A stretch of 64,000 bases of DNA, from contig CAZIVT010000001.1 of assembly GCA_964543075.1 (NCBI GenBank), forward strand, positions 7,703 through 71,702, given 5' to 3'. Shown here in pieces: positions 5,493-42,589 of the stretch; the first letter of the stretch is position 1; each line of letters opens with the position of its first letter. The notes below the pieces were generated by a model. The model made no database searches and was not told where the DNA came from. It saw nothing but the letters and a program-made list of their open reading frames with translations. The stretch comes from an uncultured Candidatus Saccharibacteria bacterium. Lineage in GTDB: Bacteria > Patescibacteriota > Minisyncoccia > Phycocordibacterales > PALSA-1337. Both the position numbers and the translations under genes were made by a program.

Positions 5493-5563
5493 AGCGTAAT
5501 GAGGCTTGAAGGTCGCACTTCACTCCAAATCAATAAGGACACACCGATACTAAATTGTCAAGG

Positions 5564-5650
5564 CGGAGAGGAAGGGATTCGAACCCTTGATGCCCTTTCG
5601 GACATACGGCCTTTCCAGGGCCGCCCATTCGACCGCTCTGGCACCTCTCC
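5564..5650 (-). tRNA. tRNA-Ser (anticodon GGA).
   Basis: The reverse complement GGAGAGGTGCCAGAGCGGTCGAATGGGCGGCCCTGGAAAGGCCGTATGTCCGAAAGGGCATCAAGGGTTCGAATCCCTTCCTCTCCG folds as follows. Acceptor GGAGAGG/CCTCTCC. A 3-bp D-stem. Anticodon stem CGGCC/GGCCG with loop CTGGAAA (anticodon GGA). A long class II variable arm. T-arm AAGGG-TTCGAAT-CCCTT. Discriminator G. CCA is not encoded. Confidence 0.9.
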
Positions 5651-25900: not shown

Positions 25901-27734
25901 CGAAGATCGCGCCGACGCTCAACGATGAACCGACGGTGACGGTGCAGGTCGAGCTAGAGCCGTTGCATGCGCCGGACCATCCGACAAATGAGGAGCTGGA
26001 TGACGGGGTTGCCGTCAGAGTCACGGTCGTGCCGGCGGGTATAGAGCTCGAGGAGCAGACCGATCCGCAGTTGATGTATGACGATCCTGACGAGACGACC
26101 GATCCGGTGCCCGTGCCGGACTTGGTCACGGTCAACGAATAGACGACAGGAACCGGGATCTTGACGCTCACGCCGGTAGAGGCGGGAGAGACGTTGCCTG
26201 CGGTGTCATAGGCGGTCACATTGTACGAATGGGTCGCGCCAGGGACGATACCGGAGGTGTTCTGGAAGGTGGTGACGGCCGGAGTGATGTTGGCGATCTG
26301 TATGCCGTCGCGGAAGACCTGATACCCTATCACGCCGACGTTGTCAGAAGAGGCGTTCCAGGAGAGGTTGACCTGCGATGAAGAGACGACGGTGGCCGAG
26401 AGTCCGGTCGGGACTGACGGAGCCGACGTGTCACCTGCAGGAACATCTGTGCTGGTTTTGAAGGTTCCCGTAGATGATTTGGAGAGCTTACCTGACGCAT
26501 CACGAGACTGGACATAGAACTGATAGTCAGAGTTCCACCTGAGACCGGCGAGAATTTGGACATGGGAAGTAGTCATGCTCGATCCGGTGTCTTTGAGAGC
26601 GGAGTGGAGATTGAAGGAGCCGATACCGAAGAATACCTCGCTGTCTGACGGTATATCCGTCGTCCAATTGATGGTCACTCGATCGAGCTGTATATCCGTG
26701 ACGGAGACATTGGATATGGTGGGGCCAGACTGGGCTGGGACAGAAGAAACCGATATGGTCACTGACGACGCAGTTGATGTTCCCCCAGGACCGGAACATA
26801 CGATACTGTATGTCGTGTTAGATGTCGGTGAGACGGTCTCGCTCCCGGCCGTAGCCTTAGTGCCGGAGAATCCTGATCCTGAAGCAGAGCAGGATACCGC
26901 GTCAGTCGACGTCCAGATCAATGTAGCCGACTGTCCCGCGACGATCGATGTCGTATTCGCTGAGAGAGAAGCGGTCGGGGCTACGACCACTCGGGCGGTC
27001 GTGAACGTGGCGTTCGATGAACGAGCGACGTTGCCGGCAGCGTCCTTGGAAGTGACACGGTAGTTGTAGACAGTGTTTTGCTCGAGACCGGTGATCGTCT
27101 GGCTATGCGACGTACCCATAGCTGATCCTGTGTCGGTCAATCCTGAGTTGCTTCCATATGAAGAAGTGAGACCATACTCGACATAGGTGTCGGCGGCCTC
27201 ATTGGTGTTCCATGAGATGGTGGCACGGTCGGTAGCGATGCCGCTGACCGAGACTCCCGAGATAGAGGGAGCAGTAGTGTCCCCTGACGATCCGGTATCG
27301 CTCGAACCATTCGGTCCGGTCTTGAACGAATACGTGGGAGACTTGGTGAGCTTGCCTGATGCGTCACGTGACTGCACATAGAACTGATATGACGTATTCC
27401 TCCTCAGACCCGCGACGATCTGTCCGTGGGAGGTGACCATGCTCGATCCAGTATCCTTGAGGGTCGAGTGTGAGTTGATGGAATTGGTCCCGAAGAAGAC
27501 TTCGGTATCCGAAGGCACGTCAGTATTCCATCTCACAGTGACTCGATCTGTCTGGATGTCAGAGACAGAGACGCCAGAGATGACTGGTCCGGATACTTGA
27601 GCGGTCTGGCTCGATCCATCGATCGGAACGACTGCGAGCGGCGACGTCGACGAGTTGAAGACGATGTAGCCGAGCGAAAGCGCCGTCACGCAGAGCGCGA
27701 CGATCAGGAGGAACGATGCTGGAAAACGGTTCAT
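22902..27734 (-). CDS. Giant secreted/surface protein (1610 aa) with FN3-like repeats, InlB-B-type bacterial repeats, an SH3b-like domain and a C-terminal right-handed beta-helix.
   Basis: A signal peptide is followed by repeated FN3-like modules (...VTVRWNTDVPSDTEVFFG...YQFYVQSRDASGK...). Next come the repeats YSLTVTKSGTGTGSVVS...CGSVCSS...VTLTATP...FVGWSGAC and SH3-like segments. A beta-helix region follows (NNIVIDGKGWQGITFRTGGA...). An exact internal duplication of about 135 bp lies at 24113..24245 and 24833..24965. Confidence 0.85.
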   Translation of the reverse strand: MNRFPASFLLIVALCVTALSLGYIVFNSSTSPLAVVPIDGSSQTAQVSGPVISGVSVSDIQTDRVTVRWNTDVPSDTEVFFGTNSINSHSTLKDTGSSMVTSHGQIVAGLRRNTSYQFYVQSRDASGKLTKSPTYSFKTGPNGSSDTGSSGDTTAPSISGVSVSGIATDRATISWNTNEAADTYVEYGLTSSYGSNSGLTDTGSAMGTSHSQTITGLEQNTVYNYRVTSKDAAGNVARSSNATFTTARVVVAPTASLSANTTSIVAGQSATLIWTSTDAVSCSASGSGFSGTKATAGSETVSPTSNTTYSIVCSGPGGTSTASSVTISVSSVPAQSGPTISNVSVTDIQLDRVTINWTTDIPSDSEVFFGIGSFNLHSALKDTGSSMTTSHVQILAGLRWNSDYQFYVQSRDASGKLSKSSTGTFKTSTDVPAGDTSAPSVPTGLSATVVSSSQVNLSWNASSDNVGVIGYQVFRDGIQIANITPAVTTFQNTSGIVPGATHSYNVTAYDTAGNVSPASTGVSVKIPVPVVYSLTVTKSGTGTGSVVSSGSSYINCGSVCSSSSIPAGTTVTLTATPSSSSSFVGWSGACNGSSSTCTVTVGSSLSVGAIFATTLPQVTDGTSVNVSVGTPFSFNLVSGDTYKLVGTVSAPDGGRNSFYVDIDSNPSTDGKVWDIQYPVSNTAKDVTWRGNNTTCYEYSCAGIVPKTWTLSAGVHTLYVNARENGTSISSIKFVKYTPPVIDGTDPSIPSGLTASVISSSQINLSWNASSDNVGVTGYQVYRNGAFLTTVNGRSYVNTGLSANTTYSYSVAAFDAAGNVSNLSSAVSATTQSNPSYTVTVTKNGTGAGTVTSGGSINCGNSCTSSGDPGMTVTLTATPAAGSVFAGWSGVSGCSTAATCSFTLNANTTINAVFNAAPVSSYSLTVTTSGSGTVTRSPNLSTYAAGTSVTLTASPASGYTFSGWGGACSGSSSTCTLTINSNTSVSAAFTPVVVTGAFTIGQTVRPIYSTVNVRQVAGGTLLGTQSDTSVGTVIAGPVSAVLSVDGVTYTWWNIDFSSGADGWVGEDGLEAYTASASTKFQTGAQVQVSGTGTFLNIRSAPSASASTVGTQNDGAIGSIVSSTQNGTFADGYYWWNVNFASGADGWAAEDYLRDYVDPSITYTLSVTTSGSGTVTRSPNLSTYAAGTSVTLTASPASGYTFSGWGGACSGAASCTVTMNGNVSVSALFSEIQTGSNVYYVTPTGAGSKNGSSWANAYADLPSTLVSGATYMLQPGSYNALNVTSSGSANAPIVIRRSLELAPNEPVASSDRVSFGAASKVTGNNIVIDGKGWQGITFRTGGAISTSAGSVAVMLSGSNVTLRNAFFNGTFGGGYAHLGFNPPSGGTIRVEYSDFYRSTYEDQFAIDPKQTGGDIILDHNVFRDNVKSGESNPPHRDIVNSWTGKGGYGLTVSNSIMFNSSGLSVQGDGFLLQDAYGGSAAALKYVRFYNNVAYNTARPIAFGTKNSGWSQEFKVYNNTFVKTTGISVVSPAGSPTTKNGLSSTSNVNNGSPSTIEAMYGADGKPFTSDDAFALKSATSGGSTISTTDLDGPQYDITGKLRTGSPDLGAYEY

Positions 27735-28121
27735 GATATATGTGGTTTTTAATACGGAACTTTTTATAAACGCACTATCGTAGAGATGTGACGCATCTCA
27801 TAGGTACCATTATAGATGACCCTCATATCTCTGTCTTGTGGAAAAGTGCCAATTTGTCACAACTTCTATACTGTCCGGATATGGGCAGTATCTGAGTGAG
27901 ACGATTTGGATCTATACATTCTTTCTCTATGTTCCATCCTCACCATATATATAGTATGCGCAGACAGAACACTCATTCCGCGTTTCTGCCGTACATACAT
28001 GTCTAGTCAATTACATCCACAAATACGATCTGCCCGTACACAAAACTGTATATTTTACGAACTCAATTATACGGCTTAAAACCGTTTGATTTACTATATA
28101 TTTATCAAGGTTTAGTATAGT

Positions 28122-31100
28122 TTAGTTATCTGTCTGCTCATCACTACCTGAGTCATCAGATACAGTTGAACTGTCCTGATCTCCTTCTGTGCTTCCCTGC
28201 TGTGATCCATCGCCTTGGTCATCTGACGTCTCGGTCGATGTGTCGACGCTCTCATCAGTGGTCGTCTCGCCATCCTCTGTCGAGGTCACCGTATCGTCTG
28301 CCTCATCAGAGGGGACTTGATCGACATCATCCTCTACTTCACTGTCTAAATCATCGGTACTTGGTGTAGTGGTCGCGGCCAAATCATCGTCTGGATCGGT
28401 GTTCGGAGTAGTGGTCGCTGTGGAGCCATCATCTGCCACTGGCGGCGTAGTGGTCGCCTGAGCATCTCCTGTCTGATCTCCTTGAGGGTCATCTGGACCA
28501 TTCGTTGACTGATCTGGCTCAGGCGTTGTCTGATCGTCATCTTGCATCGTCTGATCATCGACATGCTGATCAGATCCTATAGACTGCTCGGCACATGATC
28601 CGAGCCGCTTGACCCAGTCTCCATCGGAGATCTGCACGCAGTAGATGTCGCCCGTGGTCGCATCAGTCATCTCGAGGCCATTGGAGACCGCGGCCGTCTG
28701 TACCTCGATGCGCTCGGCGTAGATGATGCGCGCGGTGAAGACGTCGACCGCCCATTCTCCGGCATCTCTGAACAAACCGATAACCGCCTCAGCGATACGT
28801 CCTATGAATGACTGGTCGAGCGAGAGCGCTGCGGCTGTCGTAGAAGCGATGGTAGTAGTCGACGTCGAGGCGAGCTGTCCTTCGAATACATTGAGCGCGA
28901 GCTCCTCGATCTGGAGCTGCTGTTCCTGGACTGCTTTGACGAGGAGGGCTGTCATATCCTCATAGCGGACGCCTCTCGGGGTCGTGCCGTCGAGCTCAGT
29001 GAAGATGAGACGAGGGTCTATCTCCCCTACCTCCTCGGCGAGGAAGCCGACGCGAGCGTCGTCACTGCCGTTGTACAGGAAGGATACGGGGCGGAGCTGT
29101 TTGAGCTCATCGAGACCGACCGAGAGATCGGAGACGCTGTTCTTGAAGCGGGCCGACGACACGGTACAGGTCTGCGCGCCCGTGTTGACGACGACCTCCT
29201 TGGAAGATGAGAGGCAGAGCGCGTCTCCGGATGAGACGGCTGCGGTTAGGCCATCGAAACCGACGGTTCCTGCCACAGAGAGCTTCCTCCAAGGAGACGT
29301 GGTGCTGATACCGACATATCCTCCAGTACCAGCCCCCTTCACAATGAACACATCGCCTGCCGATGATGATGGGGACGAGATCAGGAAATAATTGCTATTC
29401 GCTGATGATGGAAGTTTCAAGTGCAACACATCGGTAGAATCATTCACAGGATATATATCGAAGCGTGCGCCGATATTTGAACCAGCGTCAGTAGTACCCC
29501 CTTGACCATTGAATGATATAGTTCCTCCATTTACCTGGAACCAATCTGCGCCATTCGCAGCTTCCATCAAGAAGGATGGGTTGGCACCATTTCCACCAAT
29601 ATTGAATACCGAGTCAGTGAAGCTATACAGCCTCTGTCCGAGAGAGCTATACAGATTCATCACATTTGATCCAGTACCCTGAATGTTGACCATGTTGGAC
29701 GCCGTCGTGGTACCTATGCTGACGGTACCATTATCCAATAGCGTGAATTTCGGTACATTGGATGAGTCCGCAACTTGGAAGGTAGTGCCTGTGCCGGTTC
29801 CAGCACCAGTGACTGACAGCCTAGCGAATGGTGAAGTCGTGCCGATGCCGACGTTACCAGACTTGGAAGTTATCGAGTTAGTGCCATTCTCGACTACATT
29901 GAGTGAACCAGCTGTGGAATTGTAATTGATGTATGTATCGCCTTTGGTGAGAGTTGACCCGTTATAGCTCCCTTCAAAGTAGAGCTTCTTGTTGCTTGCA
30001 ATCATGCTGTCATCGCCCGAATACAAACTCAGTGAGTTCTGTGTCAAGAGGCTTGCCGTCACATCCGGTGGAGGCGCATATATGCCAACCATATTCCATG
30101 TTCCCTCGTACTCGTCGAATTCATCTAGGACGAAGAAGTCAATGTATTTTCCAATGAGATTTTGCGTCGTACCGGAATCAGAACCTTTACCGATGTCAGA
30201 TTGTGATTCTACAGTAGTCCTGTCTCCGACGATCGTCGCAGCACCGGAGTTGATATCTCCACTATTCAATACAGTCCACCATTGACCAAAGAGAGTCTTT
30301 CCTCCTGATCCTGTGGCATTGACTTGGACAGGAGAACCTGTAAACGTCGCATTCCCCGTGTAGAACGCATCTACATCGAAGAATGATTGATCTGTATTCT
30401 TGACATAGAGCTGTCCCAAAATATCAAGTTTCGGAATACTGTCTGCCGCTTTGCCGATGGCGATGTTACCTGTCGTAGGATTGATATTGATGGATGATGT
30501 GGCAGTAAGAGTTGTGCCACTTGAAGCATAATACGGGAACTGACCAGCCGTACCACTCCCAACCGTCCCTGACCCGCTCCCTCCTCCGACGCACGTGCCG
30601 TTGATGGCGAAGCAACCAGAGGAGATATTGATGCCGTTTGCGAATGTGCTCGTCGCTGTCGACGTGGCTGTGAAGTAGCCGGCGACCACTTGCCCTGCTA
30701 CGGAAAGCTTGGCATATGGCGACGTAGTGCCGATACCGACGTTGCCGGACGAGTTGACAATAAATCTATCACCATCTGCATTTGGTGTTGAGGAAACAGC
30801 AAAGTCATCTACTACTTCTATCTGAAAATCTGGATCCGTATCTCCAACACCGAGCTCGCCGCTCACCGCCTCAAGTCTCATCCTCTCGTTCGTACCTATA
30901 GTCTGCAAATCTCCACCGGCATTCCATGACCAGTGGTTCGAACCAGAATTCACTGTAAAGAACTGGACTTCTCCTGAATTGATTCCTACTCCACTACGAG
31001 CACTCGCCCCGCCGTTATACCAATACATGTTCGGTTCTTGGAAAATATTGGTCCCGAAATCGATGTAGTCAGTAACTGACACTGTACCCTTATTAGTTAT

Positions 31101-34100
31101 ATTGAACAACGTAGTCGTCGCAGATGCGGTAGTTGATGATATTCTGAACAAATTAGTGTAGGCCTCTCCGTCATTGCCATAGAAATGGAATTTTGATGTC
31201 GGATTGATCCCTGTTATACACCCAGCACACAAAGCAGTATTGCCGATCAGTCTTGCATAATAATTTGGACTAGTTCCATCGATTTGTAGACCACCCGAAA
31301 GAGTCGAGGTTGATAACGGTTGACTATTCGTTATCCAACCTGCCCTGAACGGAAGACGCGAAGAAGTAGTTTGGACCAATCCCTCAATCGCATACGGATT
31401 GTACGAAAACGCATGGTTCGACTCATCTCCAAGCCATACTGACAACGGTTGGCCATAGTTCATGTAATTGCGATACAACAGCTGTCCTGAAGAATCGAGG
31501 ATTGTGAGGCCAAAATCAGAAGATACGCGCGAGTTATCCGCTGTCGAATTCATAAATCTGACGATAGGGCCGGTTGTATTTGTAAAATGAGAACCTTTAA
31601 GGTTGAGATCCGTAACCGCAGCATTGACTTTGATGGCACCGTCAGACGGCACATTTTGCGTCCACAGGTTTTCGACGTCGATGTTATATATCGTCGTCTC
31701 TATCGGTGTATATTGCGATTCATCATGACCAATCTGGATAACTGAACTCGTCCCTGTCGTGCCTGAATATGCGGTGCCTGTATTTTCGATATGACCTCCG
31801 AGTTTTACCGTATTCGTCCCCTGACCACCGATAAGGTACACAATGCGATTGGACGCTCCTGTCATGTAAAATTCTGCAACCGTTGTATTGTTGTTGCGAT
31901 TCTCACTTGCGAGCTCAATACAGATATCGTTTGAGTTACACCTGCCATCAAGAAACCATGAATCAGCCTTATATCCACCAGCAAATCCACGGCGGTTATT
32001 ATAGAAGGCTACGTTGCGACCTTCTACATATGTGATAGACGACAATGACGTCGTGCCTGTCTTCATCGCCGCATCTCCCCAATATTGGAACATCACATTA
32101 TCGATCGAGATGTTTCCTGTCGGGTTTGGAGTAGTCTCAATCCACCAACCAGTCGTATTATCATTTGTGACGGGAGATCCTGTCGATGGTCCAACGATAG
32201 CGATATCTTTGAATGAAGCGAGGCCTTTCAGAAATACGCCTGTACCTGTGTATTTCCACTGAGAATTCCTATTTCCAAGAACCAGTCCTCCGCGCACACC
32301 AAGTGTTGCGTTGTCACAGAATGTTGTAAATTCATGTGACCCGCTATCTCTATACGTTCCAGACGGAAAGTAGAGAATCCCGCATGAATCAGCAAAATCA
32401 GAGAATGCGCTGGCAATTGCGGCGGTATCATCAGAAACACCATCTCCAACTGCGCCATAATCTTTGACATTGAATACTTCAAGTGAAGTACTTGCGAGAT
32501 CAGCGAACGTCGGCAGGCCGAGCGAGCTGGTAGCCGTGAGCGCATACCCTCCTGAGGCATTGCCGAGGAGGATCTGGCCATATGACGGAGCTGAGGTGAG
32601 GCCAGTTCCTCCGTAGAGGACGCCGATCGATGAGGTCGCAGAGACGACACCTCCGTTGGCTTGGAGCGGGCCGTTGAGGGAGCCGATAGTGAGGGTGGAA
32701 TTGAAGGCGGCCGATCCACCGAACGTGTTGGAGCCATTGAAAGCCTGGGTACCAGTGAATGTGTTGCTGGCATACGTCTTGGGGATGGTGGATGAGGCGC
32801 TGATGTAGCTGTTCACCAGGGCGTTGGAGTAGTAGAGGTTGGAGGAGCCCTGAGTGAGGCCATCAGTAGTAGTGGCATACCAAGAAGTTTGTGTGAGGTA
32901 TGTTGCGGCAGCCGATGCAGAGGTTAGATACAAAGAGAGGTCAGTGAACGTTGGCATCCCCAGCGAGCTGGTAGCTACCCACTGTGTGCCTGATCCGGTG
33001 GATTGGAGGATGGAACCGAGAGAGCCGGCTGAAGTTGAGCCATCATAGAGCTGGCCTGAGACCCGGAGGTTGGTAGCGAGGAGGTTGGGTAGCGTGGAAG
33101 TCGCTGAAGTCGATGTCGCGGTGAAGTAATCGGCTCTGACGTCTTGGTTGAATACTCCCCTGCCGTCGACAGAGAGCTTGGCATACGGAGACGTGGTGCC
33201 GATGCCGACGTTGCCGCCCATGAAGTTGGCGACGACGGGATTGGCCTGCGTCGTCGAGGCGACGAAGGCGGAGATCGTGCCGCGGGAGAAGATGCCGGAG
33301 ATGCCCGCAGTGAGACCACCCTGGGCATAGATGTCGCCGCCAATGAGAACATTGTTCCTGACACTGACGGTGCCCGCCTCTACGGATCCGGCATATGTAG
33401 ACGGCGTCTTGAATCCATCGATGCGCGCGATCTTGAGGCCAGACGACCCTGCCGTCAGATAGGCATATGTGCCCGATACGAAGCTCCTCGTCGAGACAGT
33501 CGTCAATGTCCCGACCAGCGATGGTGCCGATGGTCGAGAGACGTCGACGACTACGAACTGCTGATTGCCGGGCTCTGCGTTGTTCATATACGCATAGTCT
33601 CCAAAGACGCGTATGCTCGATGATATGTAGTCTGCCCCACTCGTATATGAGCCGACTAGCGATGGAGACACGGGATTTGATACATCGATGATCAACATCC
33701 CTGATCCGAATCCATCCGCCAGATATGCATACCTGTCAGACACATACACTGCCGTAGCTGTACCAGCGCTGTTGTACGTCCCTACCAACACCGGTGACAC
33801 CGGATTGGAGATATCGACGATTTGCAGACCTCCGGTATCATCAGCGACATAAGCATACGGTCCGACGACATACACGGCATTAGCGAATCCGCTGGTGTCA
33901 TACGAGCCCGTCGTCCGTGGCGCGCGCGGATCGGAGATATCGATGACTGATATGCCTGATCCTCCTGTAGCCACATAGAGGAACTTGCCCGACGGATAGA
34001 TGCCGTAGGCGTTGATCGAGGTCACTGTCCCTACGACAGCGGGAGATGCAGGATTGGAGACATCGATGATCCTGATCCTGAAGTTGGCGGAATCCCAGAC

Positions 34101-37100
34101 GTATAGATAGTCGGCGGATCCGGTGATAGTGGTGGCTGTGCCGGAGATATCATACGTCTTGACCAGAGTCGGAGCTCGCGGATCTGACACATCGAGGATC
34201 TGTATGCCTGACGTGCCATCTGCCACATATCCATACGTGCCGGATACGAAGACGTCTACGGAGCTTCCTGATGTATCGTACGATCCGACCAACGTGGGCG
34301 ATCCTACAGCACTATGGACGATGCTTCCCCCGGCTATAGCGAGCTTTGTCGTAGTCGTAGCAGTTGTGGTACCGATCAGGACTGCTCCTCCACTCGTCGC
34401 GAGATACGCGCTCGCGGATGATGTGAGCGCGGTCGTGGAGGCATAGGGGAATGTCGACGCTGTCGTCGAGGTCGCGGTGAAGTAAGATGCTCGCGTCTCT
34501 CCCGTGGAGAGGATCGTCAATTTGGCTGAGTCTGAAGGGCCGATCATGGTAGAGTTCGCGATCGCATTGGTGATACCTGATCCGAATACAGAAGCGCCTC
34601 CGGCGGAAACTACGTTGTTGTAGCCGAACGCGGACGATGCGTTGCCAGAAGCGGTATTCAATCTTCCGAATGCGGATGTCTCTACGTTTGAAGCAGTGTT
34701 GTTGGTTCCGAAAGCGGATGAGGAATTGGCTGACGCGGTGTTGCTATAACCGAAGGCGGAAGATACCGAGAGACCACTCGCCACATTGAGCGCTCCGACA
34801 GTGATCGCGGCTGATACTCCGGAAGCTCTGTTGTCGTAGCCCAACGCGACGGCAGAGTTGCCTGACGCAACATTGGCGGATGACGATCTCCCGCTTTGAA
34901 TATCGATGGAGTCAGAACCGCGCGCGTTGCCAGTGACATCTCCGGCGACTACGGAACCATTGGAGCGAGCTATGTCGAGGGCTCCGGCGATGGATACATC
35001 ATAGGCAAAGGTCGATGTCGCTGAAGTGGATGTGGACGTGATGTAATTGACGGTCGGAGATGTAGATGCCGCCAAAGCTGACGTGCCCCCAGGCGAGTAC
35101 ACCCAGCCTTGTCCAAATGAGCTACCCCCTGTCCCACCCTGAGATACATCGAGCGTCCCTGAGATGGATGAGAAAGCGATCCCCAGCGAGCTGGTAGCTA
35201 CCCACTGTGTGCCTGATCCGGTGGATTGGAGGATGGAACCGAGAGAGCCGGCTGAAGTTGAGCCATCATAGAGCTGGCCTGAGACCCGGAGGTTGGTAGC
35301 GAGGAGGTTGGGTAGCGTGGAAGTCGCTGAAGTCGATGTCGCGGTGAAGTAATCGGCTCTGACGTCTTGGTTGAATACTCCCCTGCCGTCGACAGAGAGC
35401 TTGGCATACGGAGACGTGGTGCCGATGCCGACGTTGCCTGCGATGAGGGTGCCACTATAGTCCGACAACGTACCATTTCCTACAGCGAGCACTCCTGCGC
35501 CATATCTGGAGAGTCCAACATCAGGTGAACCATCATAGTAGTGGCTGCCACTCCTCCACGCCTGGAGATACCCACTGCCCATATACATAATGTTTCCATT
35601 CGATGCTGATATGTCTATCCCGGATTGCCCCAATCTAACCCCATTACCTGTAAAGACACCGAATTGATTCAAATTACCTGAACCGACAACAACACTGCCT
35701 GCCGTGGTTATGTTCCCCGCAACATACGCATTCCCCGTCGTCGTCGCATTACCCGAGATGGTGAGACCTCCGGTGGTGCTCCCGTCACCGATGGTGGTCG
35801 AGGCATATGAGGTCAGGCCTCCAGTGAATGAGAGCGCAGTGGAGGTGGCGTTGGAGGGGAATGGGTATGCGAACGAGGCATAGCTCCCAAGATCAGCGAA
35901 CGTCGGCAGGCCGAGGGACGAGGTGGCCGTGAGCGCGTATCCTCCCGAGGCATTACCGAGGAGAAGCTGTCCATATGTGGGAGCGGAGGTGATACCGGTT
36001 CCCCCGTAGAGGACACCGACGGAAGAGGTAGCGGAGACGACGCCGTTGTTAGCCTGCAACGGGCCATTCAGGGAGCCGACAGTGAGGGTGGAATTGAAAG
36101 CGGCCGATCCACCGAACGTGTTGGAGCCATTGAAAGCCTGGGTACCAGTGAATGTGTTGCTGGCATACGTCTTGGGGATGGTGGATGAGGCGCTGATGTA
36201 GCTGTTCACCAGGGCGTTGGAGTAGTAGAGGTTGGAGGAGCCTTGGGAGAGATCGTCAGTGGTCTTGGTGGTGAACCAGTAGTCGGTCGAGGTAGTAGCC
36301 CAGCGAGAGACCGTGGAATCCCAATACACGGCAGAGGTCGTCGAGAAGGAGTTGGCGAGGTAGTAGCTGCCCTCCTGGCCATCCAGGGTGCCTGTCCAAT
36401 CACCGGCCGTCGAGAGCGAGATGATATTGTTGGAGATAGAAAGCGGAGACGTAGCTGAGGTGATGCGATTCTGGTAGGAAGAGTTCCATTCCGTCGTCGA
36501 AGCGACAAGCGGTATGACATACCCTGTCGTGGTCGAGAGGACGCCGGTCGAGGAATTGTATGAGAGACCGACGACGTCCTCGGAGATGGCTGCGCGGGCA
36601 CGAGCGTCAGTGTAGTAGAGATTGGATCCTTCGGCGATATTGGTGGTGAGCAGGCCCAAGGATGAGGTAGCGAGCTGCTGCCATCCGCCGCCAGCATATG
36701 ATCCGAGCAAAATACCGGCCGCTGACGGACTGGAGATACCCGTACCTCCCCCACCAGCAGAAAGCGTGCCGGATATCGTAGCAGGAGCGAAGGTGAAGGT
36801 GGAGCCTGAGTTGGTGATGCCGTTCGAGATGGTGAGACCATTCCATGAAGCAGCCGAGGAAGTAGCGAAGGTGAGCGCGCCGGTCTGAGCGGAGCCGTAT
36901 GTCTGTTGGAGCGATGTTACAAACGCTGATGACGTGGCGATCTGATAGAGCGTGCCACTATTGGCGCCGATGAGGCCAGAGAGAGATCCGAGGACAGGGG
37001 CATTGGCGAAAGAGTTCGAGCCGCTCCAGGTGTTGTTGTCGGAGAGGATGGTAGATGAAGCAGTCGATATGGTGATCGAATCGCCCGCATTGAAGGCCGT

Positions 37101-39020
37101 GCCATTCACCGTGCCGAGAGAGCCGGAGAGATATCCTGTGCTGAGCGTAGTGGTTGCGATGATAGTCCCATCAGCATCGGTAGCGAGGAGCGCGTCTGAG
37201 ACTCCTGTGATGGCGAGGCTCGTCGTCGTCGCATTGCCCGAGATGGTGAGGCCGCCGGTGAGTGTCACGTTGCCGCCAAATCTCGAATTGCCTGACACTT
37301 CGAATATATCGCCTGTGGTTGAGGTCGCGTTGGTGCCGATGAGGACGACATTGGATGTATCTGAGGGATACACGGCCAGACTATCGCTCGTGGTCGCCCA
37401 TGCCGCCGCGCCGCCACCTCCACTGCTCGTGAGATCAGAGTACCACCCCGGTATGCCCCCACTGAGCTTGAGCACCAGGCCATTGGACCCTCGCGGAAGC
37501 CTCGTGAGCACGCCCGCTGAATTGGCGTAGAGGATATCTCCCTCGGCATATGTAGAGAACCCTGTTCCGCCATACACAGAAGATATCGTCGATGACGCTG
37601 AGACATCTCCTCCTATCGCCTGCAATGGGCCACTCAGAGATCCCACAGTCAGTCCACTAGCAGTGAGTCCTCCGGTGAAGGTCTGCGCTCCGGTGAAGGT
37701 GTTCGTGGCATACGTCTTGGGGATGGTGGATGAGGCGCTGATGTAGCTGTTCACATCAGCATCTCCATACGCGCCAGCTCCTGTGATGCAGACCCCATCG
37801 ATAGCAAGACATCCGCCATCCAGGTCGATGCCATTGGCGAATGTCGACGTTCCTGTTCCAGAGACGGTCAGCTGTCCGCCGATAGATACATCAGAGGAGA
37901 AGGCGCCCGTGGTCCCCGAAAAAGATGACGACACTATCGTCGAATTGGAGATCGTCGAACCAGATATCGACGAGAGATCTACCAGACCGCTGCCCGCATC
38001 CTCATCGCCATTCTCCATCGAGTCATAGATAGCATCTACCTGCAGACGAGAGCGCGCCTGCTCGGCGATGAATCGATACTCCAGATCGTCCAGCTTCTGC
38101 GCCAGCAGGTCGTCCTGTCGTTCGACGATGACCGTCTGAGGTTGGATGATGCGTTCGACGATCGTCTTGGCCGGGATCGTAGGGATCACCGAGATGGTCG
38201 GGGGCGCGACCGTCTCCCCGACTGTCGTCACTGGCGCGGACGGAGCGATGGCGTATGTCGAGACCTCTGATACGACGCATGACGAGCGGCTCCCGAAGAG
38301 CGCAGATGACAGAGCGCACTTCATCCCATCCCATGCCTCGCCGATACCCGCGACGAGCGGCGTGCCCGTCTTCGACATCTGAGCGACCGGACTCATGACC
38401 ATGCCGACAGAACGATCGATCACACGCGAGATCGTCTGCGTATCGAGAGCCGCGTATCCTATCGATCCGACCATCACCAAGCCGATGATGACCATCATCG
38501 CGCGCGTCATGATCCTCTGACGCATCAGATCCCACGAAGATCCGAGCGCGACGCGAGTCCTATCCTTGATCGCCTTGGTTGCTTCAGCGACGCCATCCAG
38601 CCGTATCGTCTCACGTGCCGAACCGACCTTGCTCTTGGACAAGGACGGCAGAAGCTCTCTATCATCCTTCGCATATATGTATGATGAACCGCTCGTATCC
38701 GTAGAGGCTTGTATATCATCCGTCGCCCTCGATACAGGCTCCGATCGCGCCACACTGCCCTGCTCGATACTGACTGAGTCCGTGATATTCTCTCCTGATT
38801 CGACTCGCTGTCGACGTCCTGTATAGAAAGTATCAGTAGACTTTTGGTGATTGATCAACGATGCCGAATCGATGAACCACGTGCGTCCCAGCATGCGAGC
38901 TGCGACCTTTCCTTCGCGACACAATTGTCCGATATAGTCCTTGGAATACTTGGTCATCTCGGAAGCTCGTCTGACCGAGATGAACTCTCTCTCATTGATT
39001 GTGACGACGTCTTTCATCAC
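28122..39020 (-). CDS. Giant multidomain surface protein (3632 aa). N-terminal excisionase-type HTH, one TM helix, tail-fibre-like repeats, LVIVD-like repeats, a pectate-lyase-like region, a C-terminal S74 intramolecular-chaperone autoprotease domain and an acidic tail.
   Basis: N-terminus MMKDVVTINEREFISVRRASEMTKYSKDYIGQLCREGKVAARMLGRTWFID is an excisionase-family HTH. The TM helix is MTRAMMVIIGLVMVGSIGYAAL. Repeats of the type SYISASSTIPKTYA.NTFTG.Q.F.G follow. The LVIVD-like run reads GYVADGTSGIQILDVSDPRAPTLV... The pectate-lyase-like region starts VFNVKDYGAVGDGVSDDTAAIASAF. The S74 domain near the C-terminus is SARFKNSVSDLSVGLDELKQLRPVSFLYNGSDDARVGFLAEEVGEIDPRLIF...VRYEDMTALLVKAVQEQQLQIEEL. 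An Asp/Thr-rich acidic tail ends the protein. Confidence 0.85.
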   Translation of the reverse strand: MMKDVVTINEREFISVRRASEMTKYSKDYIGQLCREGKVAARMLGRTWFIDSASLINHQKSTDTFYTGRRQRVESGENITDSVSIEQGSVARSEPVSRATDDIQASTDTSGSSYIYAKDDRELLPSLSKSKVGSARETIRLDGVAEATKAIKDRTRVALGSSWDLMRQRIMTRAMMVIIGLVMVGSIGYAALDTQTISRVIDRSVGMVMSPVAQMSKTGTPLVAGIGEAWDGMKCALSSALFGSRSSCVVSEVSTYAIAPSAPVTTVGETVAPPTISVIPTIPAKTIVERIIQPQTVIVERQDDLLAQKLDDLEYRFIAEQARSRLQVDAIYDSMENGDEDAGSGLVDLSSISGSTISNSTIVSSSFSGTTGAFSSDVSIGGQLTVSGTGTSTFANGIDLDGGCLAIDGVCITGAGAYGDADVNSYISASSTIPKTYATNTFTGAQTFTGGLTASGLTVGSLSGPLQAIGGDVSASSTISSVYGGTGFSTYAEGDILYANSAGVLTRLPRGSNGLVLKLSGGIPGWYSDLTSSGGGGAAAWATTSDSLAVYPSDTSNVVLIGTNATSTTGDIFEVSGNSRFGGNVTLTGGLTISGNATTTSLAITGVSDALLATDADGTIIATTTLSTGYLSGSLGTVNGTAFNAGDSITISTASSTILSDNNTWSGSNSFANAPVLGSLSGLIGANSGTLYQIATSSAFVTSLQQTYGSAQTGALTFATSSAASWNGLTISNGITNSGSTFTFAPATISGTLSAGGGGTGISSPSAAGILLGSYAGGGWQQLATSSLGLLTTNIAEGSNLYYTDARARAAISEDVVGLSYNSSTGVLSTTTGYVIPLVASTTEWNSSYQNRITSATSPLSISNNIISLSTAGDWTGTLDGQEGSYYLANSFSTTSAVYWDSTVSRWATTSTDYWFTTKTTDDLSQGSSNLYYSNALVNSYISASSTIPKTYASNTFTGTQAFNGSNTFGGSAAFNSTLTVGSLNGPLQANNGVVSATSSVGVLYGGTGITSAPTYGQLLLGNASGGYALTATSSLGLPTFADLGSYASFAYPFPSNATSTALSFTGGLTSYASTTIGDGSTTGGLTISGNATTTGNAYVAGNITTAGSVVVGSGNLNQFGVFTGNGVRLGQSGIDISASNGNIMYMGSGYLQAWRSGSHYYDGSPDVGLSRYGAGVLAVGNGTLSDYSGTLIAGNVGIGTTSPYAKLSVDGRGVFNQDVRADYFTATSTSATSTLPNLLATNLRVSGQLYDGSTSAGSLGSILQSTGSGTQWVATSSLGIAFSSISGTLDVSQGGTGGSSFGQGWVYSPGGTSALAASTSPTVNYITSTSTSATSTFAYDVSIAGALDIARSNGSVVAGDVTGNARGSDSIDIQSGRSSSANVASGNSAVALGYDNRASGVSAAITVGALNVASGLSVSSAFGYSNTASANSSSAFGTNNTASNVETSAFGRLNTASGNASSAFGYNNVVSAGGASVFGSGITNAIANSTMIGPSDSAKLTILSTGETRASYFTATSTTASTFPYASTTALTSSASAYLATSGGAVLIGTTTATTTTKLAIAGGSIVHSAVGSPTLVGSYDTSGSSVDVFVSGTYGYVADGTSGIQILDVSDPRAPTLVKTYDISGTATTITGSADYLYVWDSANFRIRIIDVSNPASPAVVGTVTSINAYGIYPSGKFLYVATGGSGISVIDISDPRAPRTTGSYDTSGFANAVYVVGPYAYVADDTGGLQIVDISNPVSPVLVGTYNSAGTATAVYVSDRYAYLADGFGSGMLIIDVSNPVSPSLVGSYTSGADYISSSIRVFGDYAYMNNAEPGNQQFVVVDVSRPSAPSLVGTLTTVSTRSFVSGTYAYLTAGSSGLKIARIDGFKTPSTYAGSVEAGTVSVRNNVLIGGDIYAQGGLTAGISGIFSRGTISAFVASTTQANPVVANFMGGNVGIGTTSPYAKLSVDGRGVFNQDVRADYFTATSTSATSTLPNLLATNLRVSGQLYDGSTSAGSLGSILQSTGSGTQWVATSSLGMPTFTDLSLYLTSASAAATYLTQTSWYATTTDGLTQGSSNLYYSNALVNSYISASSTIPKTYASNTFTGTQAFNGSNTFGGSAAFNSTLTIGSLNGPLQANGGVVSATSSIGVLYGGTGLTSAPSYGQILLGNASGGYALTATSSLGLPTFADLASTSLEVFNVKDYGAVGDGVSDDTAAIASAFSDFADSCGILYFPSGTYRDSGSHEFTTFCDNATLGVRGGLVLGNRNSQWKYTGTGVFLKGLASFKDIAIVGPSTGSPVTNDNTTGWWIETTPNPTGNISIDNVMFQYWGDAAMKTGTTSLSSITYVEGRNVAFYNNRRGFAGGYKADSWFLDGRCNSNDICIELASENRNNNTTVAEFYMTGASNRIVYLIGGQGTNTVKLGGHIENTGTAYSGTTGTSSVIQIGHDESQYTPIETTIYNIDVENLWTQNVPSDGAIKVNAAVTDLNLKGSHFTNTTGPIVRFMNSTADNSRVSSDFGLTILDSSGQLLYRNYMNYGQPLSVWLGDESNHAFSYNPYAIEGLVQTTSSRLPFRAGWITNSQPLSTSTLSGGLQIDGTSPNYYARLIGNTALCAGCITGINPTSKFHFYGNDGEAYTNLFRISSTTASATTTLFNITNKGTVSVTDYIDFGTNIFQEPNMYWYNGGASARSGVGINSGEVQFFTVNSGSNHWSWNAGGDLQTIGTNERMRLEAVSGELGVGDTDPDFQIEVVDDFAVSSTPNADGDRFIVNSSGNVGIGTTSPYAKLSVAGQVVAGYFTATSTATSTFANGINISSGCFAINGTCVGGGSGSGTVGSGTAGQFPYYASSGTTLTATSSININPTTGNIAIGKAADSIPKLDILGQLYVKNTDQSFFDVDAFYTGNATFTGSPVQVNATGSGGKTLFGQWWTVLNSGDINSGAATIVGDRTTVESQSDIGKGSDSGTTQNLIGKYIDFFVLDEFDEYEGTWNMVGIYAPPPDVTASLLTQNSLSLYSGDDSMIASNKKLYFEGSYNGSTLTKGDTYINYNSTAGSLNVVENGTNSITSKSGNVGIGTTSPFARLSVTGAGTGTGTTFQVADSSNVPKFTLLDNGTVSIGTTTASNMVNIQGTGSNVMNLYSSLGQRLYSFTDSVFNIGGNGANPSFLMEAANGADWFQVNGGTISFNGQGGTTDAGSNIGARFDIYPVNDSTDVLHLKLPSSANSNYFLISSPSSSAGDVFIVKGAGTGGYVGISTTSPWRKLSVAGTVGFDGLTAAVSSGDALCLSSSKEVVVNTGAQTCTVSSARFKNSVSDLSVGLDELKQLRPVSFLYNGSDDARVGFLAEEVGEIDPRLIFTELDGTTPRGVRYEDMTALLVKAVQEQQLQIEELALNVFEGQLASTSTTTIASTTAAALSLDQSFIGRIAEAVIGLFRDAGEWAVDVFTARIIYAERIEVQTAAVSNGLEMTDATTGDIYCVQISDGDWVKRLGSCAEQSIGSDQHVDDQTMQDDDQTTPEPDQSTNGPDDPQGDQTGDAQATTTPPVADDGSTATTTPNTDPDDDLAATTTPSTDDLDSEVEDDVDQVPSDEADDTVTSTEDGETTTDESVDTSTETSDDQGDGSQQGSTEGDQDSSTVSDDSGSDEQTDN

Positions 39021-39328
39021 TCATAAGTATACGGTTCTTATCTACAAAAAGTCTCTGTGGATAAGCTATTTCCACGATCTACAAAATTAAAACGCTCATA
39101 TCGCATTTTAAACGGTCGTCTGTGACTACCACCTACCAAACGACGTCAGTGAAGCTCACCTCTAGATCTGAAAAAATGCATCAACAAAAAATTGCGTTCT
39201 CATAGCCTACCTTACTAAACCAAAATAAAGCATCATATATTTATCCACATATAGTATATAGTTTATCAAGCTTTAGTAATGCTATACTATATGCACAATA
39301 GATTTACGCAATCATAAACCACACCACC

Positions 39329-39586
39329 ATGTCCCAAGAATCCAAGATAGTTACCATCAAAGAAGCATCGAGAATGTTAGGGGTTACCCCTCTTACCCTG
39401 CGTAACTGGGACAATAGCGGCAAGCTCAAGGCGCTCCGACATCCGATCAATAATTACCGTGTCTACAAGCGCGCTGATATCGAGCGTCTGATCGAGGAGA
39501 TCGGCAAGAATGAGTCTCCTACGAGGAAGCGCTACTCCAAAAAGGCCGTCAGGAAGCTCCAGGTGCGTCATATGGACCAATCTTAG
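39329..39586 (+). CDS. Excisionase/MerR-like helix-turn-helix DNA-binding protein (85 aa), divergent from the giant gene.
   Basis: IVTIKEASRMLGVTPLTLRNWDNSGKLKALRHPINNYRVYKRADIERLI is an HTH_17/excisionase-family pattern. Confidence 0.75.
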   Translation: MSQESKIVTIKEASRMLGVTPLTLRNWDNSGKLKALRHPINNYRVYKRADIERLIEEIGKNESPTRKRYSKKAVRKLQVRHMDQS

Positions 39587-39643
39587 CGACCAGAATGTTT
39601 GTATCCTTTATTTAATTCATATAATCGACGTTTGCGTATTCTA

Positions 39644-39680
39644 GATGACACCCTGATCAGCTACCTGGGGTGTCATTTTA
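39644..39680 (+). terminator. Rho-independent terminator after the HTH gene.
   Basis: gatgacaccc-tgatcagctacct-ggggtgtcat followed by tttt. Confidence 0.65.
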
Positions 39681-39838
39681 CTTACAATGATCAGAGATGT
39701 GTGGCGACACGCCTGCACAATACCGGTGTCAAAAAGATGCCTGAACTGGATTGAAAATTGGCCTCATTTTCGTTATTATGTACATACGTAACTCCTGCCT
39801 GAAATTTCTTCTCAAGAACCTACCTAGCATCTACCGCC

Positions 39839-41416
39839 ATGTCATCATATATACCGACCATCGGCCTCGAGATCCACGCGGAGCTCAGGACATCTTCCAA
39901 GATGTTCTGCTCATGCGTCAATGATCCTGATGAGGCTCGTCCCAATACCAATGTCTGCCCCATCTGCATGGGTCATCCTGGTACGCTTCCTGTACTCAAC
40001 AGAGAAGCGATCCGCCACGTGCTCCGGATCGGTACGGCCGTCGGCGGGACGCTCGCAGATTTCACCGAGTGGGATCGCAAGAACTATTTCTATCCAGACA
40101 TCCCCAAGGGATACCAGATCAGCCAGTACGCCTACCCGCTCGTCTCGGGAGGATCGCTCGCCGGCGTCGAGCTCGAACGCATCCATCTAGAAGAAGACAC
40201 TGCTAGCTCGACGCATGATGCGCATGAGAAGAGCCTCGTCGACTTCAACCGTTCCGGCGTTCCGCTCATGGAGCTGGTGACCAAGCCGGTCATCCGCGAT
40301 GCCGCGACCGCCGTCAGATTCGCGCGCGAGCTCCAGCTCCTCCTGCGCTATCTCTCCGCCGGAGAAGCCAACCTCGAGAAGGGCGAGATGCGCATCGAGG
40401 CCAACATCTCCGTCGCCTCCCCTGCCGACACTGAGGCGGGACGATTCGGGACCAAGACCGAGGTCAAGAATCTCAACTCATTCAGCGCGGTCGAGCGGGC
40501 GGTCGCCTACGAGATCGAGCGACAGTCATCTTTGCTCGCCGACGGCGAGAGCGTCACACAGGAAACGCGCGGCTGGGATGATCGCGCGCAGGAGACCTAT
40601 TCACAGCGATCCAAGGAAAGCTCGCATGACTATCGCTACTTCCCCGATCCGGACATACCCAAGCTCAAGATCTCCGAGATCCCCGAATTCTCCGCCGATT
40701 CTTTGAGGAAGGACCTGCCAGAGCTTCCGTGGATCAGACGCGACCGTTTCAAGAAAGACTTCGGCATGACCGACAAGGAGGTCGCCGTATTCATCGAGTC
40801 CCCCGACCTGGCTGATTACTACGAGGAAGTCGTCGGGTATCTGGCTACAGGCGATGCTAAGTCTGCGAAATTGGCGACCAATTATGTGCTCACGGATTAT
40901 CTCAAGCTGGTCAGAGACGCGCAAACGGCTGCTTCAAGAGCAATCCAAGACACCACGAAGACAGGAGACGCTTCGGGATCAACTCAAGATACCGCGCAAA
41001 CAGCAGAGGCTCCGGAGCCACAACTAACGAACGATGACTCATCATTCGTATCGAACGTCCCGTCATCTCTGTATTGGAATCTCTCGCCATCCGTCTTCGC
41101 CGAGCTCATATCCATGATCAACGCCGGCGAGCTCTCGTCTCGCGGCGCCAAGGACCTGCTCAAGATCCTCTTCACCGAACAGGCCGTCTCCGCCAAGAAG
41201 ACTGCCGAGGAACGCGGCTTGCTCCAGAAGAGCTCAGCCGAAGACCTCGTACCTGCCATCGAACAGGTCATCGCCTCCAACGAGAAGGCTATCGCCGAGT
41301 ACAAGGCCGGCAAAGCGGCTTCCCTACAGTACCTGATCGGCCAAGCCATGCGGGCCACCAAGGGCGCCGGCAATCCGGATATGATCAGGAAGTTGCTGGT
41401 GGAGAAGATCGGGTAG
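39839..41416 (+). CDS. gatB: Asp/Glu-tRNA(Asn/Gln) amidotransferase subunit B.
   Basis: MSSYIPTIGLEIHAELRTSSKMFCSC...NVCPICMGHPGTLPVLN... The C-terminal YqeY-like region carries an insertion (TKTGDASGSTQDTAQTAEAPEPQ...). Confidence 0.93.
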   Translation: MSSYIPTIGLEIHAELRTSSKMFCSCVNDPDEARPNTNVCPICMGHPGTLPVLNREAIRHVLRIGTAVGGTLADFTEWDRKNYFYPDIPKGYQISQYAYPLVSGGSLAGVELERIHLEEDTASSTHDAHEKSLVDFNRSGVPLMELVTKPVIRDAATAVRFARELQLLLRYLSAGEANLEKGEMRIEANISVASPADTEAGRFGTKTEVKNLNSFSAVERAVAYEIERQSSLLADGESVTQETRGWDDRAQETYSQRSKESSHDYRYFPDPDIPKLKISEIPEFSADSLRKDLPELPWIRRDRFKKDFGMTDKEVAVFIESPDLADYYEEVVGYLATGDAKSAKLATNYVLTDYLKLVRDAQTAASRAIQDTTKTGDASGSTQDTAQTAEAPEPQLTNDDSSFVSNVPSSLYWNLSPSVFAELISMINAGELSSRGAKDLLKILFTEQAVSAKKTAEERGLLQKSSAEDLVPAIEQVIASNEKAIAEYKAGKAASLQYLIGQAMRATKGAGNPDMIRKLLVEKIG

Positions 41417-41441
41417 GTTCGACTCTGTAAAATACGTATGC

Positions 41442-41476
41442 AAAAAAGCCAGATAGAACATCATTCTATCTGGCTT
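41442..41476. terminator. Hairpin terminator between convergent gatB and the membrane-protein gene. The T-tract is on the minus strand.
   Basis: aaaaaa-gccagatagaa-catca-ttctatctggc. Confidence 0.6.
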
Positions 41477-41506
41477 GAAGCAAACAAGCTGCTTTGTCAG
41501 CTCGCA

Positions 41507-42376: not shown

Positions 42377-42589
42377 AGTTCTTTCCTTTCATTTCTTGTG
42401 TGAGTTGTTTGTCAAAGGAATACAAGGCACCCGCCTATATTCCATTCTACATTTACTAAGTTAATTATAAATTATTTGCAATAAAAAGTCAACCTGGATA
42501 GTTCTGGGGGTAAAATTGAGTCCTTTATCTACTTTCAGCAAAAATCTAAAACCCACCGTATTCTAATATACCTGAATCCATGCGGTCTT

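Follow-up and report, generated by a model that had tools for sequence, protein, structure and literature searches.

Does a helix-turn-helix (HTH) domain belong at the foot of a giant, phage-fibre-like surface protein, and if so, what does it do there? The question is raised by an uninterrupted open reading frame (ORF) at 28122..39020 on the minus strand of the window, that is, of the whole 64,000-nucleotide stretch of DNA from an uncultured bacterium analysed here. It concerns the Patescibacteria, also called the Candidate Phyla Radiation (CPR), which make up a large share of bacterial diversity and most of which are thought to live attached to a host; how they recognize, hold and sense this host is largely unknown.

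Our favoured reading, with a probability of roughly 0.6, is that the ORF encodes a single-pass membrane-anchored trimeric fibre (an adhesin or a depolymerase) of a Paceibacteria-type bacterium, matured by an S74 domain and provided with a conserved cytoplasmic HTH. The HTH head is standard for giant surface proteins at this chromosomal slot and is not an accident of one genome. The layout proposed in the first-pass annotation of the window, namely a cytoplasmic HTH, one transmembrane (TM) helix and a fibre-like ectodomain with LVIVD repeats, a beta-helix and an S74 domain, is borne out by profile, hydropathy and AF2 evidence. No description of the HTH-TM-giant ectodomain architecture was found in the searchable literature, Pfam-A 2025 or NCBIfam 2026.

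Integrity of the giant gene and recurrence of its build

The gene and its N-terminal module comprise the following features.

28122..39017, minus strand: complete giant ORF, 3,631 amino acids (aa), from ATG at 39017 to the stop codon at 28122-28124
38799..39017, minus strand: cytoplasmic excisionase/MerR-type winged HTH, residues 1-73 (HTH_17 below cut-off; AF2; Foldseek; alignment columns)
38523..38798, minus strand: linker, predicted to be disordered, residues 74-165, with a conserved D-x-R-x-L-L-P-x-L motif (pLDDT <60; alignment)
38427..38522, minus strand: the sole TM helix, residues 166-197, a predicted signal anchor with the N-terminus inside (hydropathy, flanking charges, AF2 helix 141-202)
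38013..38135, minus strand: predicted extracellular helix at the fibre base, residues 295-335, preceded by an ERIIQPQT motif (AF2; sequences P0081, P0091, P0123 and P0133; blastp)

The ORF opens with GTG at 39020, directly followed by ATG at 39017. Since the MKD N-terminus and the DNA just upstream are kept in relatives, the ATG is likely the start of the giant gene, the product being 3,631 aa long. An identical protein (P0080; NCBI source, 83.7-kb contig) is found in a public protein collection.

If the fusion were an artefact of a frameshift, a lost stop codon or a mis-join at a repeat, the HTH-TM gene and the fibre gene would be separate genes. Three observations could be taken in this sense. 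All 79 matches of the first homologue search, made with residues 1-340, are stand-alone proteins of 210-377 aa in which only a short tail comes after an HTH, a linker and a TM helix. In two related loci, L001 and L010, the HTH-TM gene is separate; after it come three small WxL/WxLIP-like genes, then an fn3 gene, and then an S74 giant that has a signal peptide of its own. Finally, the gene contains internal repeats of 79-300 nt, and it is from this DNA repeat analysis that the module repeats of the protein were derived: a 79-nt in-frame repeat that encodes VNSYISASSTIPKTYA (37676-37754, 36131-36209 and 32738-32816; twice exact, once with 89% identity), and larger repeats of 273 nt (98% identity) and 300 nt (88%).

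Nevertheless, two other sequencing runs, SRR13355620 and SRR13355621, yielded Logan contigs with 100% identity to the window at 37725-42733 and 37725-40016, respectively, so that the HTH, the TM helix and the opening 431 codons, extending into fibre-like sequence, are placed in one frame independently. Both contigs end at 37725, inside the 79-nt repeat with its three copies in the gene, as would be expected of an assembler with k = 31. By our reasoning, the nested repeats permit a single complete path through the assembly graph. The fusion also recurs in the orthologous locus L011 and in at least ten other species, as the first-pass annotation had proposed to check. Thus, the giant gene is intact and real, and the probability of an artefact is next to negligible. 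The frame-merging error, which that annotation had named as a way for its reading to fail, is countered by the junction being reproduced in independent assemblies and by the presence of the fusion in many species. Its other suggestion, that of a fused small regulator gene, holds in the evolutionary sense, as close relatives have stand-alone HTH-TM genes for ~250-380 aa, and fails in the sense of an artefact made of separate genes.

That both independent short-k assemblies break at the 79-nt repeat is a warning that public assemblies systematically fragment the family's giant genes, whose proteins then look partial or "short". The three small secreted proteins between the HTH-TM gene and the giant (L001, 11179-13735; L010, 1533-4000) are absent from the window; one of them scores 26.6 bits against the WxLIP_PGBD cut-off of 27.3 and recalls the WxL surface-protein clusters of Firmicutes.

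An exhaustive search of 1.84 billion cluster representatives yielded 686 representatives of the HTH-TM family at E<=1e-10, long members included. Among individual relatives, P0081 (871 aa, partial, from a Candidatus Pacebacteria metagenome-assembled genome) aligns with query residues 1-336 in one stretch at 42% identity; in its locus, L011, the gene order from Wzy_C to MerR is as in the window, and the fused ORF leaves the contig end. In P0091 (1,995 aa), P0123 and P0133, two HTHs in tandem precede a TM helix, the same post-TM "ERIIER/VIERVERVV" helix and fibre repeats. Two tandem HTH copies before the TM helix are seen in many family members (P0001, P0082, P0091 and most matches of the exhaustive search); the window protein has one.

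In a species scan with one genome per GTDB species we collected 245 relatives, all of them Patescibacteria, and kept 80 loci. Long HTH-carrying ORFs are present in 10 of the 80. Four have 2,169 aa (L013, complete), 3,353 aa (L016, complete and with LVIVD repeats as well), 852 aa and 691 aa; the six others run into a contig end and have at least 3,586 (L018), 1,320, 690, 682, 644 and 497 aa. In nine of the ten there is a single hydrophobic segment, located after the HTH, and L034 has a second one at residue 1. The long members are 24-33% identical to the window protein from residue 1 to ~410-640 (L016, 33% over residues 11-639), and the C-terminus of L013 matches its residues 3284-3554. The helix at the fibre base is common to other fused family members, as seen with blastp over residues 1-~410.

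The remaining 70 loci contain the small form of the gene (~250 aa in most other relatives, where it follows gatB). In 61 of these 70 an ORF of at least 400 aa lies within 4 kb downstream, mostly after a gap of 260-1,000 nt; such ORFs are mostly cut by contig ends, the longest exceeding 3,384 aa. Of the 56 downstream giant ORFs that were read, at least 51 start with a paralogous HTH and have a TM helix at about residues 100-160. The consensus of this paralogous giant-type HTH is MDPLFEKNLITTKDAGELSGYTSDYLARLARSGKI-G-R-G-SWLID; in the window protein its place is taken by the other HTH paralogue, of the KDYIGQLCREGK type. The third homologue search, made with the paralogous giant-type HTH, returned contig-end fragments only. 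Thus, a MerR/Xis-type HTH, one TM helix and a giant ectodomain are the normal build at this slot in Kaiserbacteria, Taylorbacteria, Nomurabacteria and Paceibacterota.

Ectodomain, S74 domain and chromosomal setting

The hydropathy scan of the 3,631 residues reveals one hydrophobic segment, at ~166-197, with basic residues enriched on its N-terminal side; there is no N-terminal signal peptide, and no LPXTG motif was found in the giant protein. The predicted topology is N-in, C-out, and the residues beyond the fibre-base helix would form the following ectodomain.

37098..37991, minus strand: first tail-fibre-like Gly/Ser/Thr-rich module, residues 343-640 (partly within the Logan contigs; similarity to L016)
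34518..34946, minus strand: YadA-head-like short repeats (NTASG...SSAFG), residues 1358-1500 (YadA_head below cut-off; similarity to L001 and L010)
33363..34322, minus strand: LVIVD repeats, six stretches, residues ~1566-1885 (Pfam LVIVD, PF08309, E 4.5e-51, 170 bits)
31311..32522, minus strand: right-handed beta-helix of the pectate-lyase/tailspike type, residues 2166-2569, starting with VFNVKDYGAVGDG (PF12708; homologues; AF2; Foldseek)
28698..29159, minus strand: S74 intramolecular chaperone, or self-cleaving domain, residues 3287-3440, with predicted cleavage at S3287 (PF13884; Pfam core at 29010-29159)
28125..28697, minus strand: C-terminal extension, residues 3441-3631, a TGDIYCVQISDG motif followed by an acidic low-complexity tail (similar motif and tail in L013 and P0091)

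Both profile matches anticipated by the first-pass annotation were obtained. Peptidase_S74 (PF13884; residues 3287-3336) scores 30.3 bits in the whole protein and 35.3 bits in the region alone, at a cut-off of 22. With a scan of only the region, PF12708 (Pect-lyase_RHGA_epim, the former Pectate_lyase_3 family) scores 46.2 bits, the cut-off being 27. At the start of the S74 domain (...TCTVS-SARFKN...), Ser3287 and Lys3292 are spaced as in the SDxxxK motif described for S74 proteins (PMC10769870). Trimerisation and self-cleavage of S74 proteins have been established with the K1F endosialidase, T5 pb1 and Bd3182 of Bdellovibrio (PMC10769870). Residues ~3216-3350 are 28-40% identical to the C-termini of tail fibres and tailspikes from Synechococcus, Roseobacter and Staphylococcus phages (best tblastn E 7e-11), while a sequence search of PDB with the S74 region gave weak matches only (E 0.04-0.29). 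The conserved TGDIYCVQISDG is followed by the acidic tail; the extension has 191 residues, among them 54 D+E and 2 K+R.

When the model of the beta-helix was compared with known structures using Foldseek, the matches (E from 1.7e-5 to ~1e-2) included 7chu, ORF18 of Geobacillus virus E2, GH28 polygalacturonases, PfbA, AlgE epimerases, GH87 glucanases and tailspikes. The beta-helix fold is supported by this modelling, and enzyme activity is only possible. The LVIVD stretches probably form a beta-propeller. The YadA-head-like stretch is 51-60% identical to the giants of L001 and L010, and its YadA_head score in the Pfam scan, 13.9 bits, is under the cut-off of 25. The likely binding parts of the fibre, possibly glycan-cutting ones, are the beta-helix, the LVIVD propeller and the YadA-like repeats.

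The S74 domain, the beta-helix and the similarity to tail fibres would also suit a structural tail-fibre gene belonging to a prophage or some phage-derived particle, and the window does contain a reverse transcriptase and a serine recombinase elsewhere. We consider such an origin very improbable. No phage structural or replication genes flank the giant ORF; the gene row around it comprises Wzy_C/TPR, ribosomal proteins and EF-Tu, MurB, SecA, NUDIX, an AI-2E transporter, Obg, a hypothetical gene, GatB, a small MerR-like gene and the giant gene, and beyond it a 1,610-aa fn3/Flg_new_2 surface protein followed by TGT, aldolase and a pilin-like gene. The synteny of these housekeeping neighbours is retained in L001, L006, L009 and L011; the setting is a bacterial chromosome of the Patescibacteria type. 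The predicted N-terminal membrane anchor also argues for a cellular protein, none of 2.9 million viral contigs in IMG/VR contains the N-terminal HTH-TM family, and the sole PHROG match, to a long tail fibre distal subunit, is weak (E 7.5e-4).

The HTH head and the promoter motif

The remaining question is what the HTH would bind. AF2, run with an 80-sequence alignment, models residues 1-73 with pLDDT >94 and the order beta-beta-alpha-alpha-beta-beta-alpha. The top PDB match in Foldseek is 4j2n, Xis of mycobacteriophage Pukovnik (TM-score 0.73, rmsd 1.1 A over 46 columns), followed by BldC (0.69-0.71), RacA (0.64), the excisionase RdfS and MerR-type regulators; the Foldseek E-values are weak (0.06-0.6), because the domain is small. 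The model thus makes us confident of a winged-helix fold like that of Xis and MerR. DNA binding by this domain is probable, though a weaker prediction. The recognition helix SKDYIGQLCREGK is nearly invariant in the 80-sequence alignment, the MerR-like wing residues R45 and W47 are retained, and the domain is net basic (14 K+R vs 9 D+E). Near-invariance of the recognition helix, together with the 686 cluster representatives, implies that the HTH has a conserved binding partner. For the N-terminal module, Pfam-A (2025), NCBIfam (2026) and PHROGs gave nothing beyond weak HTH_17/excisionase hits.

The partner may be a protein. The HTH of RodZ binds MreB, and the MerR-like CbpM binds the J-domain of CbpA; similarly, the HTH-fold domain might serve to bind or anchor protein, connecting the fibre base to a conserved cytosolic component (for example cytoskeletal, or of division or secretion) and not to DNA. 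A recognition helix nearly invariant in hundreds of diverged proteins fits one protein as well as one DNA site; CbpM, a MerR fold that binds protein, has rank 20 among the Foldseek matches; and the small HTH-TM gene is located 52 nt after gatB, in a housekeeping row, in many genomes. On the other hand, the best fold matches (Xis, BldC, RacA, RdfS, MerR-type) are all DNA-binding, the basic charge and the retained R45 and W47 count against a protein, and no candidate partner was identified. We regard a protein partner as possible, though unlikely.

If the partner is DNA, one site to consider is the region upstream of the giant gene itself, which it shares with a small divergent gene.

39018..39328, no strand assigned: divergent promoter region (alignment of four genomes; motif search; association statistics)
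39329..39586, plus strand: small soluble MerR/BldC-like HTH gene, 85 aa, divergent from the giant gene (Pfam MerR_1, MerR and HTH_17; NCBIfam BldC below cut-off)

Between the giant gene and the MerR-like gene, these 311 nt show strong conservation in four genomes, although protein identity among them is no more than 42-62%. Among the invariant blocks, TGTGGATAA and CTTATCCACAGAG contain the 9-mer TTATCCACA in both orientations: perfect copies are at 39056-39064 (minus) and 39241-39249 (plus), a copy with one mismatch is at 39038-39046 (plus), and two of the three perfect copies in the window fall in this region. A -10-like TATACT is situated at 39026-39031, 8 nt before the ATG. As TATACTTAT at this distance is invariant in the four aligned genomes and there is no obvious Shine-Dalgarno sequence, the sequence suggests a leaderless mRNA, or one with a very short leader, for the 11-kb gene.

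The related loci, 1.23 Mb in all, contain 120 perfect copies of TTATCCACA. When a perfect copy was required within 130 nt upstream and on the same strand, it preceded 41 of the 69 HTH-led ORFs with 450 aa or more, 6 of the 77 small ones and 9 of the 1,074 other ORFs with 150 aa or more, several of these nine being HTH-led genes overlooked by the search pattern. In the loci of the small type the motif's position relative to the giant ORF's start is -68/-69 or -77/-79, and a conserved AAGTTATTATTTAGTTAATTCGGnTATCCGAC leader comes after it; with up to two mismatches permitted, it occupies a fixed position in 54 of 55 loci, the commonest variants being TTATCCCCA and CTATCCACA. The 9-mer is exactly the classical DnaA-box consensus. 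An origin of replication (oriC), considered in view of three DnaA-box-like sites within 212 nt, was rejected: in no locus do three or more perfect boxes fall within 600 nt. As there is no oriC-like cluster and the distance from the start codons is fixed, TTATCCACA is a promoter element. One copy lies upstream of a dnaN-like ORF in L034.

Several observations weigh against the favoured reading, or against the idea that its HTH acts on this promoter. The TTATCCACA site is single, oriented and asymmetric, which fits DnaA better than a MerR-type dimer. No covariation was seen between the variants of the box and the recognition helix of the HTH, and hence DnaA is the more economical binder; DnaA accounts for the motif equally well if the HTH binds a protein. 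Since the motif is identical to the DnaA-box consensus, it does not by itself point to the HTH as the domain bound there; the HTH proteins are still candidates because their recognition helix is as invariant as the motif. The excisionase-family assignment of the first-pass annotation stands as far as the AF2 fold and its best match, Xis, are concerned, and does not reach the cut-off by profile: HTH_17 (PF12728) scores 14.5 bits in the whole protein and 21.1 bits with the N-terminus alone (E 3.8e-4), under the cut-off of 27, and NCBIfam "excise" scores 17.9 against 28.8. In relatives the HTH_17 cut-off is passed (P0091, 40.6 bits, plus many precomputed hits).

Other such points concern the ectodomain. 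The residue after Ser3287 is Ser and not Asp (SSARFK vs SDxxxK). The PF12708 match is limited to profile positions 2-48 of 213, and in the AF2 model of the beta-helix the first ~180 residues are confident while half of the model is of low confidence; hence enzyme activity of the beta-helix is unproven. PfbA, one of its top fold matches, is a non-enzymatic adhesin. The closest S74 giant, that of L001, has its own signal peptide and no HTH, and thus the HTH is dispensable for an S74-type ectodomain. DNA binding by the HTH, trimerisation and cleavage are all predictions.

A further alternative is a contact-sensing, membrane-tethered transcription factor, in which binding to the fibre or pull on it would lead to cleavage near or within the membrane and release of the HTH, as in Notch, in regulated intramembrane proteolysis of the RsgI type or in MYRF. 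In its favour are the topology, with a DNA-binding-type domain in the cytoplasm, a single TM helix and an enormous ectodomain that includes an autoproteolytic domain; the promoter motif is conserved and specific to HTH-led giant genes, and host contact is central to the lifestyle of epibiotic Patescibacteria. However, the S74 site is ~3,090 residues from the membrane, and a cut at S3287 would free the C-terminal 345 residues only; since the HTH stays attached, release of the MYRF kind is inapplicable. Besides, no juxtamembrane autoproteolytic domain was detected, there is no gene for a site-2 protease within the window, and the small paralogues are nearly devoid of an ectodomain. We consider this alternative improbable.

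Another form of regulation, an adhesin and a transcription factor in one polypeptide, would have the HTHs of the fibre and of its small paralogue, encoded directly upstream, bind TTATCCACA in the fibre promoter, so that the occupancy or clustering of the fibre, or the mechanical load on it, at the host interface is read at the DNA. This is quite unlikely. The actual regulator of the locus may be the 85-aa MerR/BldC-like protein, whose gene is kept at the equivalent position in L001, L010 and L011.

Other features of the window are as follows. The downstream surface protein of 1,610 aa (22902-27734, minus strand) has a signal peptide and fn3, Pur_ac_phosph_N, SH3_3 and Flg_new_2 repeats, and about 100 nt upstream of its gene start a one-mismatch box, TTTTCCACA (27837-27845), overlaps a promoter-like site. 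A type IV pilin-like gene with an N_methyl motif (17026-17817, minus strand) shares this region with the two giant surface-protein genes. The reverse transcriptase (2541-3623, plus strand; RVT_1) has the group II intron reverse transcriptase as its best NCBIfam model, below the cut-off. Its identity as part of a diversity-generating retroelement was rejected, there being no repeats of the template/variable (TR/VR) type and the best model being that of a group II intron. Together with a large serine recombinase (4130-5452, plus strand), the reverse transcriptase neighbours tRNA-Ser(GGA) (5562-5650, minus strand) in a stretch of lower GC content, which may be an integrated mobile element.

Comparison with known systems and a possible mechanism

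A close parallel to the favoured membrane-anchored fibre is provided by the S74 subgroup of the MAT (mosaic adhesive trimeric) fibres of Bdellovibrio bacteriovorus, which includes Bd3182 (PMC10769870). Both are long fibres of cells, not of virions, with modules similar to phage tail fibres, a beta-helix tip region and a C-terminal S74 domain with Ser...Lys, and both come from bacteria living on other cells. In MAT proteins, which are ~1,000 aa long, a signal peptide that is cleaved off precedes a conserved N-terminal domain of ~130 aa rich in beta structure (PMC10769870), whereas the giant protein has an HTH and a TM anchor, is 3.6 times longer, and contains LVIVD and YadA-like modules and an acidic tail after the S74 domain. 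Thus, it is MAT-like in its working and is not a member of MAT, as the signal peptide and the conserved N-terminal domain are absent. With phage fibres and tailspikes, such as the K1F endosialidase and T5 pb1, it shares the S74 domain, the 28-40% identical C-termini and the tailspike-type beta-helix; unlike them, it is encoded in a housekeeping neighbourhood, is membrane-anchored, has no domain for virion attachment and carries ~190 acidic residues after the chaperone. As regards trimeric autotransporters of the YadA type, the giant protein has no match to the YadA anchor, and its C-terminus is formed by the S74 domain and the acidic tail.

Eukaryotic MYRF (S74/ICA) also combines a DNA-binding-type domain, a TM helix and S74 in one chain. 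However, its order is DNA-binding domain, S74, TM, and cleavage frees a DNA-binding trimer, while the order here is HTH, TM, ~3,090 residues, S74; the DNA-binding folds differ too, being Ndt80-like in MYRF and MerR/Xis-like in the giant protein. ToxR, CadC and TcpP have the same topology, with an N-terminal cytoplasmic winged HTH, one TM helix and an extracytoplasmic C-terminus, but theirs is a winged helix of the OmpR/PhoB type joined to a sensor of 100-300 aa, in contrast to a MerR/excisionase HTH joined to a giant fibre, and the Pfam scan gave no Trans_reg_C (OmpR/PhoB-type) match in the giant protein. RodZ likewise has an HTH, a TM helix and an outside domain, its HTH binding a protein (MreB); the RodZ domains HTH_25 and DUF4115 had no match in the same scan. 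RacA has a MerR-like winged HTH and tethers DNA to the cell pole, but is soluble and has no ectodomain.

The favoured reading would work as follows. Three chains would insert into the membrane through their N-terminal signal-anchor helices, and the ectodomains of ~3,090 residues would be exported. The C-terminal S74 chaperone would nucleate the trimer and the shaft would fold like that of a phage tail fibre, as suggested by the S74 biology of the K1F endosialidase, T5 pb1, Bd3182 and MYRF. The chaperone would then cut at S3287, and the 345-residue fragment, comprising the chaperone and the acidic tail, would leave, so that the mature fibre is held in the membrane solely by the N-terminal TM helix. 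The tailspike-type beta-helix would bind, and possibly cut, a glycan on the host cell or another substrate. The HTHs at the foot probably bind DNA, and might thereby link the fibre gene's transcription to how many fibres are inserted or to their state, or else hold this gene at the membrane.

What is new here is a cytoplasmic HTH and a TM anchor, previously undescribed on an S74-type, phage-fibre-like cellular adhesin, together with a gene-specific promoter motif. For annotation, the rule is that HTH-led giants are neither mis-merged genes nor prophage tail fibres. The finding offers testable handles on an uncultured lineage: binding of DNA by the HTH, cleavage at the S74 domain and localisation of the fibre. 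The promoters of HTH-led giants share one nearly invariant 9-mer, and should the fibre and its paralogue indeed act as transcription factors on it, this would be a contact-sensing pathway for ultra-small episymbionts without separate signalling proteins. For the family as a whole, the finding means that giant surface proteins of a conserved Patescibacteria slot are phage-fibre-like, in parallel to the MAT fibres of Bdellovibrio.

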